The notes below the pieces were generated by a model that was not told the DNA's origin, searched no databases, and was given only the letters and a program-made list of their open reading frames with translations. The position numbers were made by a program, and so were the translations under genes. A DNA stretch of 64,000 nucleotides from Patescibacteria group bacterium (lineage in GTDB: Bacteria > Patescibacteriota > Saccharimonadia > Saccharimonadales > CAYUUR01): the NCBI GenBank assembly GCA_052034685.1, contig JBPOIH010000007.1, positions 13,249 to 77,248 of the forward strand, in the 5' to 3' direction. How positions within the stretch are numbered: the first letter of the stretch is position 1; each line of letters begins with the position of its first letter. Positions 15,113 through 21,658 of the stretch are shown here, piece after piece.

Positions 15113-15778
15113 TCAACTCATTGAGATCTGATGTAAGCCACGACCTATCTCTTTGTCGCCAACAATGCCTAAAATTTCAATAAACAAGCGATTCATATTG
15201 GGTGCTTCATAAGCGGTTTGTTCAATAGTAAATTGGCCCAGCCTGAGTGTCTCTGGATCGCTGCGTTGTTCAAATCTGGTTTGGTCAACCAGCTCTTCAA
15301 GGAATTCTTCACCCTTCCAAACATGTATGCTTACTGGTTGATCATTGCACTCACGTAAAGCCAAAGCAGCCATAACATAGGTCATAGCTTGATCGGGTGC
15401 AATCAACTCTCTTATAACTCGGTAACGGTGTGGCAAGAGTTCAGAAACATGGAGTTTAGCTGCGCGCTCTATGCTTCCAATTGGCCAGGGCCGCTTACTC
15501 GATACATTGTCGGCCGTAGTGCAGATCGCATCAAGCCCAGATGCACTGTCATGAACGACAACGCTTCGGTGTGCGTAACGTTGCCGAGAACGGTTGAGTT
15601 CAGTACCAACGGTACGGTTTGGATACGCCCAGTTAAGCGGTTCTGTATTTGCAACCGCTGCACCGCGTTGCACTCCAAGCATTTGAGCATAATAACCAAG
15701 ACGTAATTCTTGCACCTCAGGCCAGTGTTGCTGCATGAGCTCCGCTGGCGTTGTTTCGGCATAAGCTGAGTGTTCCAT
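15113..15778 (-). CDS. Hypothetical protein (221 aa) between clpP and rpoB
   Basis: ORF MEHSAYAETTPAELMQQHWPEVQELRLGYYAQML... I recognise no motif in it. It occupies the position where rplKAJL usually precedes rpoB. Confidence 0.5.
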   Translation of the reverse strand: MEHSAYAETTPAELMQQHWPEVQELRLGYYAQMLGVQRGAAVANTEPLNWAYPNRTVGTELNRSRQRYAHRSVVVHDSASGLDAICTTADNVSSKRPWPIGSIERAAKLHVSELLPHRYRVIRELIAPDQAMTYVMAALALRECNDQPVSIHVWKGEEFLEELVDQTRFEQRSDPETLRLGQFTIEQTAYEAPNMNRLFIEILGIVGDKEIGRGLHQISMS

Positions 15779-16767: not shown

Positions 16768-16809
16768 AAGAAGCCTATTATACCATACATTCCGTATGTG
16801 TCTATACTA

Positions 16810-16815
16810 TTTCAC
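16810..16815. repeat. Left copy of the candidate target-site duplication (tttcac; reads tatttcac if taken as 8 bp)
   Basis: Identical tttcac sits immediately outside both terminal inverted repeats (16810..16815 and 21460..21465). Confidence 0.6.
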
Positions 16816-16842
16816 TAGCACTAATATACTTGACTAATCAAT
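16816..16842. repeat. Left terminal inverted repeat (27 bp) of the IS1595-family cargo transposon
   Basis: TAGCACTAATATACTTGACTAATCAAT is a perfect reverse complement of 21433..21459. Confidence 0.85.
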
Positions 16843-16864
16843 AACAGGGGTGTAAACTAAAAGT

Positions 16865-17764
16865 ATGAAGTATCCGACCACCCTCCTTGAAGCAGTTCGC
16901 TACTTTTCTGACCCAGAGGTGTGCGTTTCATATATGGCTAGCTTGCGTTGGCCAGATGGTGCTATTTGCCCCACCTGTGGCCGTACAGACGTAAGCATTC
17001 TGAAAAGTCAGCAACGCTTTCAGTGTAAGTCACGTCACGCTAAACGACAGTTCTCCGTTAAGGTCGGCACCATCTTTGAAGATAGCCCACTCGGACTAGA
17101 TAAATGGCTCCCAGCTGTCTGGATGATCGTTAATTCTAAAAACGGTGTCAGCTCGTACGAAATAGCTCGAGCATTAGGCGTAACTCAAAAGACTGCTTGG
17201 TTTATGGATCATCGCATTCGAGCTGCCATGAAGTATGGTGGCTTTGACAAACTTGACGACCCCGTAGAAGCAGATGAAACCTACATAGGCGGTAAAACCA
17301 CTGAAGAGCGTGGACGGTTTAGCAATAAGTCGGCCGTTATTGGTGTCGTCGAAAAGAAAAAGAATGTTGGCCAAATACGAGCTTTCGCTACTAAACATGC
17401 TGACGCTACGGTAGCACTGCCGTTTTTGCGAGCCCAGCTCAAACAAGGTGCAACCTTGTATACAGACGAAAGCCGAATATACCATCGAGCTAAGTTCGAG
17501 TTTTTTCACGAGTCAGTTAACCACCATGACGGCGAGTATGCCCGTGGCACAGTTTCAACTACGACCATAGATGGTTTTTGGAACTTAATGAAACGCTCCA
17601 TCAAAGGAACATATACCCATGTGTCGGCTGGTCACCTAAACAAATATGTAGACGAGCACACTTATCGCTACAACACCCGTGCACTTAAAGACAGCGAACG
17701 GTTTAACCACTGGTTTAGTACTTGCAACCAGCGACTACTGTACAAAGCTTTAGTAGGTCGTTAA
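16865..17764 (+). CDS. IS1595-family (ISXO2-like) DDE transposase
   Basis: 299 aa. N-terminal zinc ribbon CPTCG...C. ISXO2-like core LDKWLPAVWMIVNSKNGVSSYEIARALGVTQKTAWFMDHRIR...TDESRIYH...HESVNHHDGEYARG...GFWNLMKRSIKGTYTHVSAGHLNKYVDEHTYRYN. Confidence 0.9.
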   Translation: MKYPTTLLEAVRYFSDPEVCVSYMASLRWPDGAICPTCGRTDVSILKSQQRFQCKSRHAKRQFSVKVGTIFEDSPLGLDKWLPAVWMIVNSKNGVSSYEIARALGVTQKTAWFMDHRIRAAMKYGGFDKLDDPVEADETYIGGKTTEERGRFSNKSAVIGVVEKKKNVGQIRAFATKHADATVALPFLRAQLKQGATLYTDESRIYHRAKFEFFHESVNHHDGEYARGTVSTTTIDGFWNLMKRSIKGTYTHVSAGHLNKYVDEHTYRYNTRALKDSERFNHWFSTCNQRLLYKALVGR

Positions 17765-17937
17765 TACTTCAGCCCATGAAGTATTAAGCTCAATACCTAA
17801 CAGATATAAGTACACTTCTTCTTATTCCTTTTTTCTTTATAAATAAAGTGGAGCATTTTCTTTTTCTTTCTTCTCGCTATACAGTGGGTAGTAACGTGAG
17901 TGTATGGTGGTAGCTTGCAGTAGATGAGGCAATCGCT

Positions 17938-18828
17938 ATGGACAGTAAAACTAGACTAACTAAACAGCAATTCGATTTACTCAGATTCATATATTCACAT
18001 AGGTTTGTAACGACGAAACAGGTACAAAGATATCTAGCTAAGAGCCATATTCAGGAAGCACAGCAAAGACTAAATACTTTACTAGCTAAACAGTATATTG
18101 GTCGCAGATACAGTAGCGATGACAAGTTACTTGGACGCTACGCTAGCTACTTTCTCTTACCGGACGGCATGGAACTTATTAAAGGCCATGCCGACCTTAA
18201 AGCCCTACGACTGATGCATAAAGATCCGACTGCTTCTCAGCGATTCATTGACCACAATATTGCCGTTGGGGATGTAGCCGCAGACATAAAACATATGCTC
18301 AAAGACGTACTGGATGAAGTAGATTTCCATACCAAGACCGATATTATGTACCAGTCCAGAGTTGAATACGAAAGTAATTGGGACGGCAGTGATGACTTTG
18401 AGGTTATGACCGATTTCTACACCAAGCCAATGCCAGACGGCCATTTACAAGGCTGGCCAGTTGACTACGAAAATGTAACTTTTATCGGCTTTTTTGTTGA
18501 GGTATGGCACGACAGCGTACCGTTCTGGGTCTACCGCAAACGAATACAGTATCTTATTGAATACACCGACGACGAAACCTGGCAGGAATATAACAGTGGT
18601 AGTGACACTCCACCCTTTTTGCTAGTTTGCGACAATCCAACCTTACAACGGCGTGTGCAGCGATATCTACGCAGAATTTACGATAGTGTAAGTCATGACT
18701 ACCAATTCTTAGTCACAAACCGACAGTTATTAGCTGAAGCCAAAAGTAACGATGCTATTTGGACAAGAGTGGACGATGAAGTTACAGAGACTATACAGTT
18801 GACGGATGTGCCGGAGGGGTATGAGTAG
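17938..18828 (+). CDS. Replication-relaxation (Replic_Relax) family winged-helix protein, transposon cargo
   Basis: 296 aa. The N-terminus LTKQQFDLLRFIYSHRFVTTKQVQRYL matches the L-T-x-x-D/Q-x-x-I/L-L-x-x-L-x-x-H-R-V/F-x-T-T-x-Q-L/V signature of plasmid replication-relaxation proteins. This call is from memory of the family. Confidence 0.55.
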   Translation: MDSKTRLTKQQFDLLRFIYSHRFVTTKQVQRYLAKSHIQEAQQRLNTLLAKQYIGRRYSSDDKLLGRYASYFLLPDGMELIKGHADLKALRLMHKDPTASQRFIDHNIAVGDVAADIKHMLKDVLDEVDFHTKTDIMYQSRVEYESNWDGSDDFEVMTDFYTKPMPDGHLQGWPVDYENVTFIGFFVEVWHDSVPFWVYRKRIQYLIEYTDDETWQEYNSGSDTPPFLLVCDNPTLQRRVQRYLRRIYDSVSHDYQFLVTNRQLLAEAKSNDAIWTRVDDEVTETIQLTDVPEGYE

Positions 18829-18854
18829 AGGCGAGACATAGTATAATTACCTCT

Positions 18855-19388
18855 ATGAACGCATATCATATAACTGGCGCATCGGGTTCGGGCAAAAGTC
18901 ATGTTGGACGTGAGCTCGGTAAAAGAGGCTTTCGTGTAATCGAGACTGACTTTGAGCCAGGCTTAAGCGATTGGGCTCACAAAGAAACTCGACAAAGGGC
19001 TGAGGAACCGAGACAACCATTTCCAACTGAATGGGTTGAAGCACACGGTTGGTACTGGGACAGAGATAAAATGCATGAACTCGTTGAAGGCACTGGCGAT
19101 GTTCCAGTATTCTTCGTGGGTGGGGCTCACAATGAAACAGAGTTCTATCCGCTATTCCGAAAACGTTTTGGTTTATTTATAGATGATAAAGACGAGCTGA
19201 CCAGAAGGCTGCAGGAGCGTGAACCGGAAAGATGGATTGACGGTTCGCAAGAGCTTACGAATGTACTGGAATGGAATGACAAATCCAGAGCATTCAATGA
19301 GCAGCACGGTGCGATATCCATAGACAGCTCACAACCTGTTGAAACTATTGCCGACGTTATACTTAAGCATGTAGACGGAGATACGTAA
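18855..19388 (+). CDS. Small P-loop kinase (AAA_33; TmrB/chloramphenicol-phosphotransferase/gluconokinase-like), transposon cargo
   Basis: 177 aa. Walker A HITGASGSGKSHVGREL resembles TmrB INGAFGSGKTQTAFEL and GntK GVSGSGKS. Its size matches CPT/TmrB-type small-molecule kinases. Its stop overlaps the next ATG as TAATG. Confidence 0.65.
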   Translation: MNAYHITGASGSGKSHVGRELGKRGFRVIETDFEPGLSDWAHKETRQRAEEPRQPFPTEWVEAHGWYWDRDKMHELVEGTGDVPVFFVGGAHNETEFYPLFRKRFGLFIDDKDELTRRLQEREPERWIDGSQELTNVLEWNDKSRAFNEQHGAISIDSSQPVETIADVILKHVDGDT

Positions 19389-21274
19389 TGAAGCCAGAGA
19401 CAACCATACGTCCGTACACTCCTGAAGACATACCGAGCATGCACAACGTGGCAATTCGTGCAGCAGAGCACGATAGTGTAGACCCACTGTCTACTCTTGA
19501 GTCAATGCCCTCGTTGGAACAAATAGTAGAGTCTTTGGAAAGTAATAACACTGATCCAAATTCAGATGTGTTTGTGGCGGTGGATGAAAAAACAAAAGAT
19601 ATAGTCGGTTATGGCAAAATTGGCTGGTGGCAAGAAGAAGACGGTACCTTTGTCTATATTCACCAAGGACAAGTTGATCCAAAACACAGAGGCCACGGTG
19701 TCGGTCAAGAGCTTTTGCAAACACTACAATCTAGGATACGAGAAGTTGCTAACGGTCATCCAGAAGACAAACCTAAAACTTTTGGAGCTAATGCGAGTGA
19801 GTCTGAAGAAGGAGCATTAAAACTGCTCGAAAAAGATGGTTACAAAAAGGTGTGGTCACAAGTGGAGATGGAATTTACAGATTTTGACGATCTAAATGCC
19901 GTTGAACAACCGGAGGGTTTCGAATTTAGAGCTCCTACAACACTTGAGGAAAGACGAAAAGTTTATGAATTGAACGTTCGTGTATATGAAGGCCGTCCAG
20001 GGGCAGTTCCAGCTTCAGAAGAAGGCTTTCAAGAATTTCTCGAAGAAAATGCCGACCTTTCATTATGGAAAGTCGCATGGGATGGTGACAATATTGCCGG
20101 GTTTGTACTTGGCCGTTCCGACAAAGATAAGGGTGAGGTCACAGAGGTAGCCACTGCCCCAGAGTATCGACGTAGAGGTCTCGGTAAATGGTTAATGACT
20201 GAAAATATAAAAGCTCTTCACGAACAAGGGAATGAAATCATTCGTCTACACACCAACTCTGACGGTGCTCAAGGTGGAAGACAGCTTTATGAAAGCATGG
20301 GCTTCTCTGCACTCAAAGAAAGTCATAGATTACGCAAACCACTGAGAGAGTCAAAAATCAATCCTGAAGAAGTTGAAGCAGACACCATAGACGCAAACGA
20401 AAGCTGGCAAGCTGTCGAGCAACAGCTACCCCATATCAAAGATGTTGAAGGTGGCTTTAGTAAAGCTCAGCGTGGACTCGTGACCCTGCCAGACGGCAAA
20501 GAGGTGTTCGTTAAGGTTGGCACAGCAGAGAATACTCGGATTTGGGCACGAAAAGAAGTCGCCGTGTATAAGGCTTTAGAGGCTCATGGCTTCGAGCACA
20601 GCCCACGACTTATTGCTGCAAATGCTGATGGTTCAGCCTTTGCCCTTGAAGCCTTTAGTCCCGAAGATGGTTGGGATTGGCAAGATAACTGGACTGCTGA
20701 AAGATTAGCAGCAACACTCAAAGCCATGGATGACTTGGCAGCTATTGAGCTTAGCGATGCTGAGCGTACTATATTCATTAAAAGCAGTATTAGCCAGGAT
20801 GAAGATGGCTGGCGACCACTTTTAGAGTCACCCGAAATGCAGGAAATATTACGGCATAAACTCCATGGAGTAGGTGCGGACGATATCGCACAAAGTATTG
20901 ATTTTACTGCTGATACAGACAAAGCCAGCAGGTATGACTTCGCTGATGATGCGCTTGTACACTACGATCTTAGGGCCGATAACTGTGCGTGGAATGCAGA
21001 GACTGGACAGGTTCGTTTAGTTGATTGGAACTGGGCACAATTTGGTGATAGAGATATTGACCTGGCAGCCACTCTAACGCACGTTCAAAAGTCCGGTTTT
21101 GATATTCCTGTTGAGCTTATTGAAAAAGTAAACCCTGATGCATTTCACTGGATGGCTGGCTTCTGGCTTAATGCTGCTGCAACACCGATTTGGGAAGGTG
21201 GCTCTGAGAGTTTACGTGACCTACAGCTACTTTCTGGGATTACGGCACTCAGATTAGCAAAGGCCAAGCAGTGA
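19388..21274 (+). CDS. Tandem GNAT N-acetyltransferase fused to an aminoglycoside-phosphotransferase-like kinase domain (628 aa), transposon cargo
   Basis: GNAT motif A appears twice: QVDPKHRGHGVGQELL at aa 95-110 and VATAPEYRRRGLGKWLM at aa 254-270. The C-terminal roughly 290 aa carry APH/choline-kinase catalytic motifs: HYDLRADN (HxDxxxxN) and LVDWNWAQFGD (the DW..A Mg-binding loop). Confidence 0.75.
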   Translation: MKPETTIRPYTPEDIPSMHNVAIRAAEHDSVDPLSTLESMPSLEQIVESLESNNTDPNSDVFVAVDEKTKDIVGYGKIGWWQEEDGTFVYIHQGQVDPKHRGHGVGQELLQTLQSRIREVANGHPEDKPKTFGANASESEEGALKLLEKDGYKKVWSQVEMEFTDFDDLNAVEQPEGFEFRAPTTLEERRKVYELNVRVYEGRPGAVPASEEGFQEFLEENADLSLWKVAWDGDNIAGFVLGRSDKDKGEVTEVATAPEYRRRGLGKWLMTENIKALHEQGNEIIRLHTNSDGAQGGRQLYESMGFSALKESHRLRKPLRESKINPEEVEADTIDANESWQAVEQQLPHIKDVEGGFSKAQRGLVTLPDGKEVFVKVGTAENTRIWARKEVAVYKALEAHGFEHSPRLIAANADGSAFALEAFSPEDGWDWQDNWTAERLAATLKAMDDLAAIELSDAERTIFIKSSISQDEDGWRPLLESPEMQEILRHKLHGVGADDIAQSIDFTADTDKASRYDFADDALVHYDLRADNCAWNAETGQVRLVDWNWAQFGDRDIDLAATLTHVQKSGFDIPVELIEKVNPDAFHWMAGFWLNAAATPIWEGGSESLRDLQLLSGITALRLAKAKQ

Positions 21275-21421
21275 CAGCAAAAAAGAAATCCGAAGTTCCG
21301 AAGAAGATCATTGTAGATGTTTCAGAAAACAGCCCAATGGGAAAATTTCATAAGGCTATGAAAAAGATCGTGTCTGTTTCTAAAGAAAAACTGAAAGATA
21401 AATAGATCATGTCCAAGGCAC

Positions 21422-21658
21422 TTATTTTGAACATTGATTAGTCAAGTATATTAGTGCTATTTCACTGTTTTCTTGGTAGGCGCCACTAATGCAGTCAGGC
21501 CCGTCGATTGCCACCCTTAAGCGTTGACGTCGTTGCATGAACTCTCTGAATTCACACAGCTTGCGTTGTTGCTCGTCTTCTAGGGCGCTATAAGTCACCA
21601 ACTCAATGCCCGGCATAGCACGACTCAACAGATTATCATCTGGTCTTTGACTCTCCAT
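21422..21658 (-). CDS. Small hypothetical ORF (78 aa) downstream of tig. Its last 12 codons run through the transposon's right inverted repeat.
   Basis: MESQRPDDNLLSRAMPGIELVTYSALEDEQQRKL... Reconstructing the pre-insertion sequence gives ...QENSEIV-stop instead of ...QENSEIALIYLTNQCSK-stop. Confidence 0.3.
   Translation of the reverse strand: MESQRPDDNLLSRAMPGIELVTYSALEDEQQRKLCEFREFMQRRQRLRVAIDGPDCISGAYQENSEIALIYLTNQCSK
21433..21459. repeat. Right terminal inverted repeat (27 bp)
   Basis: ATTGATTAGTCAAGTATATTAGTGCTA is the reverse complement of 16816..16842. It is followed by the right target-site-duplication copy tttcac at 21460..21465. Confidence 0.85.

Follow-up and report, generated by a model that had tools for sequence, protein, structure and literature searches.

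A cargo-carrying IS1595-family transposon with a PF13814 gene between tig and clpP of a Saccharimonadales bacterium

The 64-kb stretch of contig JBPOIH010000007.1 analysed here (the window) comes from a Saccharimonadales bacterium, a member of the ultra-small, epibiotic Saccharibacteria, and carries between the genes tig and clpP an element of 4642 bp (positions 16817-21458). We read this element, with a probability of about 0.8, as a unit transposon ('transporter IS') that is intact and was active recently, from an IS1595 lineage associated with Saccharibacteria. It holds five genes, which encode a transposase, a protein of the PF13814 (Replic_Relax) family, a P-loop kinase-like protein, a 628-amino-acid (aa) fusion of two GNAT domains with an APH-type kinase, and a small basic protein. 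An earlier note on the same DNA, made from the sequence alone, had described an IS1595-family transposon with passenger genes at this place, a description that our analysis supports while amending the length of the target-site duplication, the length of the inverted repeats and the number of cargo genes.

The ends of the element were placed by comparison with its relatives (fetched loci carry L numbers). A perfect inverted match of 27 nucleotides (nt), 16816-16842 against 21433-21459, is the sole such pair in the window; no further copy of the repeat occurs there even with 3 mismatches, and none appeared in 100 shuffles at up to 3 mismatches. In all eight complete elements compared (those of the window, L001, L030, L033, L035, L037, L038 and L040) each 27-bp arm varies in its outermost base together with the flank: the base that closes the right arm recurs 7 nt upstream of the left arm, and the one that opens the left arm recurs 7 nt downstream of the right arm (8/8 in both cases). 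Since these outermost bases differ between elements (A, C, T or G) and track the flank, they derive from the target, which makes the duplication 8 bp and the repeats 26 bp long. The first and last bases of the window's 8-mer, ATTTCACT, happen to be A and T, which pair, so that the inverted match extends by one base into either flanking copy and looks like 27 bp. The earlier note's perfect 27-bp repeats bracketing 4.64 kb are thus real as a match and as a bracket, but one base too long on the outside.

Exact 8-bp duplications flank ten independent complete insertions (the eight just listed together with L115 and L116), in agreement with the length typical of the family (PMC8101967). The hexamer TTTCAC, taken in the earlier note for a possible target-site duplication, does abut both repeats directly, but the duplication is the whole 8-mer; the 8-bp alternative offered there had the right length but the wrong sequence and position, TATTTCAC instead of ATTTCACT at 16809-16816 and 21459-21466. 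That reading, TA plus six bases, fails in 5 of the first 8 elements (L033, L035, L037, L038 and L040), and a 6-bp duplication with 27-bp repeats does not explain why both outermost bases follow the flank in 8/8. The core of the left terminal inverted repeat, CTAATATACTTG.CTAATCAA, is invariant in nine relatives. We found no internal copy of the repeat inside the element, for which reason a composite transposon, or an inner insertion sequence able to move alone, is ruled out.

The whole 4.64 kb moves as one unit: it stands in two different flanks, each with its own duplication, and its siblings have common ends with different cargo. An ENA contig from another sample and metagenome (L001) carries the same 4.64 kb at 99.6% identity within an unrelated flank and with its own duplication, AAATAGCT. 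A second contig (L002), 4637 bp long, consists of the element alone and breaks at the repeats, as we infer an assembler would produce for a sample with more than one flank. Both window junctions recur at 100% over 13.9 kb in an independent assembly (L003), which excludes an assembly chimera. A 5.4-kb sibling (L115, L116, L117, L122 and L035) was found at three chromosomal sites with both ends visible and probably occupies a fourth, where the right end only is seen; the duplications at the three sites are ACTAAGTG, GCTGTAAG and, at the L035 site, CAAAGATT, and agree with the 8-bp reading. This sibling occurs in many metagenomes (33 index blocks), with an 8-bp duplication of its own at each complete site, and seems, of the family members seen, to be the most successful.

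The L001 copy differs from that of the window at 18 positions, which form two clusters, one in the 3' half of the PF13814 gene and one in the GNAT region (window equivalents 18478-18734 and 19900-20293). One consequence is a stop codon in its PF13814 gene; because 14/18 differences are transversions and the contig has a coverage of 3.3x, these may be sequencing errors rather than decay. A dead relic or an assembly chimera, for which one might cite this stop codon and the presence of a single copy in the window, is accordingly a very improbable account of an element with perfect repeats and a perfect duplication, purifying selection on all of its genes, and identical or near-identical copies in three further independent assemblies and two different flanks. 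Two results weigh against the picture of an active, Saccharibacteria-associated transposon: the open reading frames (ORFs) of 13 sibling or related loci, flanks included, have no genes in common with the host genes of the window or with Saccharimonadales reference loci, and exact-protein look-ups of tig and of the 97-aa ORF next to clpP (orf97), made for a strain-level empty site, returned only the occupied contig.

The transposase, called ISXO2-like in the earlier note, is indeed of this kind. It matches PF12762 (DDE_Tnp_IS1595) over the full profile at 1.4e-32 and the zinc-ribbon profile PF12760 at 4.9e-9, and scores 168.5 bits with the NCBIfam model NF033547 against a cut-off of 75. Across 30 relatives the residues C35, C38, C54, D137, D201 and K243 are invariant, H58 is nearly so, and E264 is present in 29; position 236 is D in 13 and E in 17 of them, with D in the close clade and E further out. 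Zinc ribbon, DDE domain, terminal inverted repeats, a single transposase ORF and an 8-bp duplication are all features of the IS1595 family, and the perfect repeats and duplication, together with the complete zinc-ribbon/DDE transposase, bear out the word 'intact'. Selection on the transposase is purifying, with a ratio of nonsynonymous to synonymous substitution (dN/dS) of 0.02 relative to the sibling L130. The positions of both hexamers of its promoter-like site (Table 1) are kept in siblings; a -35 hexamer inside the left repeat and a conserved -10 just before the ATG suggest that expression of the transposase may be autoregulated.

Table 1. Coordinates of the element and of adjoining host features in the window
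Feature	Position	Strand	Basis or remark
Host promoter-like site for orf97-clpP, TAGACA-16-TGnTATAAT	16777..16804	-	Consensus scan 11/12; putative function
Left target-site duplication copy, ATTTCACT	16809..16816	.	Identical to 21459-21466
Left terminal inverted repeat (IRL), 26 bp, AGCACTAATATACTTGACTAATCAAT	16817..16842	+	Perfect reverse complement of 21433-21458
Transposase promoter-like site, -35 TTGACT in IRL, -10 TAAACT ending 7 nt before ATG	16830..16858	+	Consensus scan 9/12; putative function
IS1595/ISXO2-family DDE transposase, 299 aa, apparently intact	16865..17764	+	PF12762, PF12760, NF033547
Palindrome CTTTAT-AA-ATAAAG in conserved block upstream of PF13814 gene	17835..17848	.	Intergenic alignment; candidate operator or processing site
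Replic_Relax (PF13814) protein, 296 aa, N-terminal winged helix and C-terminal PD-(D/E)XK restriction-endonuclease fold	17938..18828	+	Candidate MOBC-like nickase/relaxase
Segment unique to the window element (P-loop kinase gene and tandem-GNAT coding)	18817..20404	+	blastn against L130; right breakpoint 20404/20405
Cargo gene 1, P-loop kinase-like protein, 177 aa (AAA_18; Walker A GASGSGKS)	18855..19388	+	PF13238 1.7e-7, 32.2 bits, cut-off 29.4
Cargo gene 2, 628-aa fusion, tandem GNAT acetyltransferase (MshD-like) and APH-type kinase (HYDLRADN ... VDW)	19388..21274	+	Pfam
Small basic ORF, 44 aa (...SPMGKFHKAMKKIVSVSKEKLKDK*), backbone gene at right end	21271..21405	+	Conserved in siblings; no Pfam match
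Host small ORF downstream of tig	21422..21658	-	Last codon replaced and 10 codons added by read-through into IRR (68 -> 78 aa)
Right terminal inverted repeat (IRR), 26 bp	21433..21458	-	Conserved in siblings
Right target-site duplication copy, ATTTCACT	21459..21466	.	

To define the family, we examined in their genomic context the transposases that are 74-91% identical to that of the window. The backbone that emerges runs, in order, from the left repeat through the transposase gene, the PF13814 gene, a cargo slot and the gene of the 44-aa basic protein to the right repeat. The PF13814 gene (about 296 aa) lies directly 3' of the transposase gene in 10 of the 12 close relatives with downstream sequence and is absent from the other two, L038 and L043; of these L038, with both ends on its contig, has a perfect 8-bp duplication, and L043 shows the right end only. 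Transposases 43-49% identical to the window's are never accompanied by a PF13814 gene. The lysine-rich 44-aa ORF, with the ending ...SPMxKFHKAMKKIVSVPKxKLKDK, is kept as protein in 7/8 siblings as well as in L130, evolves at a dN/dS of 0.06 and has its stop 52-65 bp from the element end across the family. The three co-oriented genes besides the transposase that the earlier note listed are therefore present and co-oriented as stated, but a fifth ORF, the 44-aa one, had been missed, and the latter belongs with the Replic_Relax gene to the backbone rather than to the cargo. L130 shows no right inverted repeat over the 80 bp between its small ORF and the contig end (8153-8234), whereas that of the window begins after 27 bp; a truncation or rearrangement may have affected the right end of this copy.

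What fills the slot varies. L037 carries a methyltransferase-NUDIX fusion and an S51 peptidase, L040 RidA and DUF1697, L030 a DUF7347 winged-helix protein and an Rv2179c-like exonuclease, and the 5.4-kb sibling of the L035 type five uncharacterised small or membrane proteins. In the siblings without a PF13814 gene the cargo directly follows the transposase gene, and consists of an EamA transporter in L038 and of an S66 LD-carboxypeptidase with EamA in L043 (the carboxypeptidase is 45% identical to a chromosomal gene of the window). L038 has, in addition, a decayed right inverted repeat (1723-1749, 21/27 matches) about 320 bp past the transposase stop; the EamA transporter gene and a gene of 145 aa separate it from the functional right repeat, an arrangement which suggests that cargo is taken in when an inner end decays and a more distant one comes into use.

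Only the P-loop kinase and the 628-aa fusion are true cargo of the window element. Among the fetched loci, the P-loop kinase is encoded only in copies of this element; its Walker A motif is intact, and it has no assignment from NCBIfam, PADLOC, PHROG or PDB, a PDB search giving spurious DHFR matches with E above 0.03. In the fusion protein, Pfam finds two GNAT domains and an APH domain (7e-10), and the closest solved structures are the tandem-GNAT proteins 7q3a and 3tt2. At full length it was found among 5.8 billion clusters only as the window protein and its L001 variant, which fits the earlier remark that this cargo was not recognised as described. Its residues 1 to about 335 come from a tandem-GNAT family (about 500 aa, ending in a third GNAT), whose N-terminal part is 51-86% identical, and its C-terminal 290 or so residues from a 486-aa GNAT-APH family, at about 90% identity. 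The closest sibling, L130, has such a 486-aa GNAT-APH gene between its PF13814 gene and the small ORF; a blastn comparison of the two elements gives 85.8% identity over 16815-18816, 87.9% over 20405-21404 and no match in between, where 1588 bp of the window element stand in place of 641 bp in L130. Judged from these alignments, the fusion arose, relative to the sibling's 486-aa arrangement, by an in-frame domain swap in the GNAT-APH linker.

The kinase motifs VFVKVG, HYDLRADN and VDW and both GNAT acetyl-CoA loops of the fusion are intact in translation, and the APH part has a dN/dS of 0.05. With low confidence, we consider small-molecule modification, by acetylation and phosphorylation, the most likely activity of the protein, the target being plausibly an antibiotic or a polyamine-like amine. 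A known protein of comparable design is AAC(6')-Ie/APH(2'')-Ia of Tn4001 (479 aa; the pTEF1 copy was used), likewise an acetyltransferase followed by an APH-type kinase in one polypeptide on a transposon, and with the layout of the sibling's 486-aa protein; the window protein differs from it in having two MshD-type GNAT domains and no significant sequence relationship. Several searches count against an activity on antibiotics: hhalign of the GNAT-APH relatives (A8, with the same kinase domain) against AAC(6')-Ie/APH(2'')-Ia gave a probability of only 13%, none of the antimicrobial-resistance models reached its cut-off with the fusion (STAT 22 against 420; AAC(3)-XI 18 against 300), and the APH domain matched no solved kinase in the PDB by sequence. 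The mycothiol synthase model MshD, TIGR03448, gave 84.1 bits, below its cut-off of 163.1, with only the tandem-GNAT architecture in common. PADLOC had no match for any protein of the element, and PHROGs gave generic acetyltransferase matches only.

Membership of the 296-aa backbone protein in PF13814 is shown by a Pfam score of 40.5 bits (cut-off 25.3); that it may be a relaxase is our inference. AlphaFold models of the protein are confident (pLDDT 88-89). A fold search with the whole model gave winged-helix matches only, with a MarR-like N-terminal domain, and the C-terminal 200 residues, modelled alone, match the restriction endonucleases NgoMIV (8.5) and BsaWI (8.1), the nickase N.BspD6I (8.0) and FokI (7.7). 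The strand order of this C-terminal part fits the alpha-beta-beta-beta-alpha-beta core, with the invariant D167 opening the second strand and the likewise invariant E188 in the third. A profile search of the whole library returned 1,091 clusters of full-length PF13814-like proteins, and among 71 diverse members P166 is present in 70, D167 in 63, E or D at position 188 in 62, and K or R at K133 in 60. In the literature PF13814 has been placed within the PD-(D/E)XK superfamily as 'a predicted transcriptional regulator' (PMC3424549) and has been equated with the MOBC relaxase class (PMC5357655), the prototype of which, TraX of pAD1, consists of a winged helix and a restriction-endonuclease-like domain (PMC12857230). 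As a MOBC comparator we took the 'replication-relaxation family' protein of pTEF1, a plasmid typed MOBC by MOB-suite. This protein scores 28.5 bits with PF13814, above the cut-off, and hhalign aligns it to a profile of the broad family over 187 columns that span both domains, at E 2.5e-4 and a probability of only 43%.

Homologues of the gene also occur without an IS1595 transposase. In L126 (4818-11603) a serine recombinase of 571 aa adjoins a 53%-identical PF13814 homologue, and none of the called neighbours is a DDE transposase; L127 (1-13461) has a 25%-identical homologue (E 1e-21) in an island bounded by a 592-aa serine recombinase; the L127 island carries S51 peptidase, EamA, NUDIX and GNAT-APH genes, the same cargo pool as the transposon siblings. 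These islands, of Saccharibacteria type, consist of a large serine recombinase, a small ORF and the PF13814 homologue, along with DUF3800, DUF3768 and a 486-aa GNAT-APH protein, and Pfam found nothing on transfer functions among the neighbours. They form a second class of integrative element that has a backbone gene and a cargo pool in common with the IS1595 elements. Since two siblings lack the PF13814 gene, one of them (L038) with a clean duplication, the gene is dispensable for transposition; together with its recruitment by two unrelated integration systems, this means that it most plausibly serves a step common to both, which could be the processing, transfer or control of excised DNA.

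As for what that step is, we favour, tentatively and at somewhat less than even odds, sequence-specific nicking or processing of element DNA in the manner of a MOBC relaxase. The likeness to TraX of pAD1 and MobC of CloDF13 extends to the winged helix with a restriction-endonuclease-like domain, a length of about 260-300 aa, membership in PF13814 and a place on mobile elements (PMC12857230, PMC5357655); the differences are that the sequence similarity is marginal, that there is no adjacent coupling protein or type IV secretion system (T4SS), that nicking is only predicted here, and that genes of the window type are tied to DDE transposons or serine-recombinase islands rather than to plasmids. 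A 2025 survey of Candidate Phyla Radiation (CPR) genomes found T4SS to be widespread and recognised relaxases rare, with MOBC the most frequent class (58/109), and its authors considered that very different CPR relaxases may remain to be found (bioRxiv 10.1101/2025.01.22.634366). A relaxase role has to be set against the following points. The canonical lysine of the (D/E)xK motif is absent, being W190 in the window and W or a hydrophobic residue in the family; a narrow profile of the window clade was not significant against the pTEF1 protein (hhalign E 0.079; hmmsearch 12 bits, winged helix only); tblastn of the PF13814 protein against 72,556 plasmids gave no match; no oriT, coupling protein or T4SS gene was found in the element or among the window proteins scanned; and the describers of CPR T4SS think that these serve functions other than conjugation (same survey). 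When the L037 homologue was run against the plasmids, only a winged-helix match at E 0.09 came back.

Less likely, though still the strongest competitor, is that the protein is only a regulator or maintenance factor, either a repressor acting at the upstream palindrome or an addiction-type nuclease, and that the element moves between cells passively, for instance by natural transformation, in bacteria that are naturally competent. The MarR-like N-terminal domain would suit a repressor, as would the palindrome that lies before its own gene and is conserved in siblings: in L035 it reads CTATAT-AA-ATATAG, a compensatory double change that keeps the symmetry. The literature's wording 'a predicted transcriptional regulator' points the same way, and passive movement would fit the view that conjugation by CPR T4SS is unlikely (bioRxiv 10.1101/2025.01.22.634366). 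Yet nuclease PD...(E/D) residues kept in about 88% of the 71 members, under strong purifying selection, would not be expected of a pure repressor, and the same gene has been recruited by two unrelated integration systems.

Distinctly improbable is a role as a partner of the DDE transposase that cuts the second strand at the ends and so permits cut-and-paste transposition, as would be the case for a protein like TnsA of Tn7, a subunit with a restriction-endonuclease fold. The PD-(D/E)XK fold with its conserved acidic residues, the nicking endonuclease among the best structural matches, and the position of the gene directly downstream of the transposase in 10/12 close relatives behind a conserved intergenic block would all suit such a partner. 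However, L038 lacks the gene and has both repeats and a perfect 8-bp duplication (L043, of which only the right end is seen, lacks it as well), transposases 43-49% identical never have it, homologues adjoin large serine recombinases with no DDE transposase among the called neighbours, and the protein brings a winged-helix DNA-binding domain of its own instead of a transposase-interaction module.

The working of the element may be pictured as follows. The transposase would bind the repeats, with the -35 hexamer of its own promoter inside the left one, and move everything between them into AT-rich 8-bp targets; in the window, the insertion would have landed in a harmless spot, past the end of the small ORF on the tig side and short of the orf97-clpP promoter. 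In its preferred role the PF13814 protein would nick or process element DNA like a MOBC relaxase, thereby making the element a mobilizable transposon able to use the T4SS common in these bacteria; otherwise it would serve as a regulator or maintenance nuclease of the element.

Cargo-carrying IS1595 elements are already known, and in kind the window element is not new. Those with passenger genes are reportedly placed in the ISfinder groups ISNwi1+, ISPna2+ and ISNha5, and the term 'transporter IS' is said to go back to Siguier et al. in 2009. The window element lies in the same kilobase size range as these groups. It also has in common with them the zinc ribbon with DDE_Tnp_IS1595, short inverted repeats, an 8-bp duplication and passenger genes inside (PMC8101967). 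It differs in its third catalytic residue, which is D here and N, E or H in the family (compared by family description), in a transposase that is at most 38% identical to any plasmid-borne IS1595 transposase, the closest included, and in a backbone with a PF13814 nuclease and a 44-aa ORF in a CPR host. MTnSag1 of Streptococcus agalactiae and tISCpe8 of Clostridium perfringens are mobilizable transposons of the IS1595 family with repeats of about 25 bp and lnu cargo, for which transfer has been proposed (PMC5704250). An IS1595-type transposase as integrase, repeats of about 25 bp, a target duplication and a cargo enzyme predicted to modify small molecules are common to these and the window element, whereas the lnu lincosamide nucleotidyltransferases they carry and the phylum they come from are not. 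To our knowledge, MTnSag1 and tISCpe8 have an oriT but no relaxase gene of their own; the window family, in contrast, has a gene of a relaxase family (PF13814), and no oriT was identified in it. What is new is the Saccharibacteria lineage, apparently an undescribed family; its backbone of three genes, which include a PF13814 nuclease gene and a conserved small ORF; the nuclease and cargo common to serine-recombinase islands; and the domain-swapped fusion protein.

Mobile elements of CPR bacteria, or Patescibacteria, are barely described. The literature searched contained no mention of IS1595 together with Patescibacteria, and IS1595 and Saccharibacteria co-occurred only in an unrelated Francisella study. 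The window offers a clean, complete example of an active Saccharibacteria transposon family whose backbone and cargo slot are defined, and lets one see how a new enzyme was assembled within a transposon through in-frame exchange of domains; a native transposon so compact and well delimited could also serve genetics in cultivable Saccharibacteria. With a backbone gene that falls in the same protein family as MOBC relaxases and is common to serine-recombinase islands, in bacteria where T4SS are widespread and relaxases scarce, these elements are testable candidates for what, if anything, CPR bacteria mobilise. A bolder proposal, which we hold to be unlikely, is that the PF13814 proteins of the present type (about 1,100 clusters, found with IS1595 transposases or serine recombinases) are a divergent clade of MOBC-type relaxases. 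If they were, the T4SS of Saccharibacteria and of other CPR bacteria, 'relaxase-less' as they otherwise are, would have their DNA substrates in these elements, CPR epibionts would exchange genes by conjugative mobilisation, and newly assembled antibiotic-modifying enzymes such as the GNAT-GNAT-APH protein would spread among bacteria that live on antibiotic-producing Actinobacteria.

At the insertion site the host genes all lie on the minus strand: rpoB, a 221-aa ORF, clpP and the 97-aa ORF on one side, and the 78-aa ORF, tig and hisS on the other. For an empty-site comparison, which the earlier note had proposed, we searched species-representative genomes with tig and obtained 22 loci, mostly titled Saccharibacteria or Saccharimonadales with a few other or generic titles; the best tig match was 60% identical. 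The order hisS-tig-clpP-rpoB is found in all 21 loci that reach clpP, the remaining one being a short contig that ends before it, and no gene of the element occurs anywhere in the 22 loci, tig-clpP gaps included (tblastn). These gaps measure 115-750 bp in 19/21 loci, and that of the window minus the element measures 585 bp. The tig-clpP order, said in the earlier note to be otherwise intact, is so in the window and in these 21 relatives, which constitute a family-level rather than a strain-level empty site. Removal of the element and one repeat copy gives ...CTATACTATTTCACTGTTTTC... and reproduces the continuous small ORF ending QENSEIV* that had been predicted, of 68 aa as against 78 aa in the occupied site. 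The restored ORF is weak evidence, because the frame is open either way and the ORF has no tblastn homologue in the 22 related loci; it has no Pfam match either. Neither the repeat core nor the reconstructed empty site turned up in scans of viral contigs.

The strong promoter-like site of orf97-clpP lies 5 bp outside the left duplication copy and is unbroken by the insertion, and clpP expression is probably unaffected, as far as this site tells. The G+C content is 0.43-0.47 both within and outside the element, which rules out an argument for foreign origin by base composition; only the strand skew flips, because the element genes lie on the opposite strand. All long ORFs in 1107-31879 are on the minus strand save the element's five genes, so that the insertion is head-on to local transcription. 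The tig-clpP spacer is variable in Saccharimonadales, with a 968-aa ORF in one relative (L026, 10355-13261) and two ORFs in another (L016, 3296-4383), all unrelated to the element. The 221-aa ORF between clpP and rpoB (15113-15778, minus strand), which matches nothing in Pfam or NCBIfam, has a tblastn homologue in only 2/22 related loci. The ORFs scanned further on are housekeeping genes, encoding a transglycosylase-domain protein, a Clp ATPase, aminopeptidase N, DnaE, a PilB-type ATPase, GatA/GatB, RecG and RadA.

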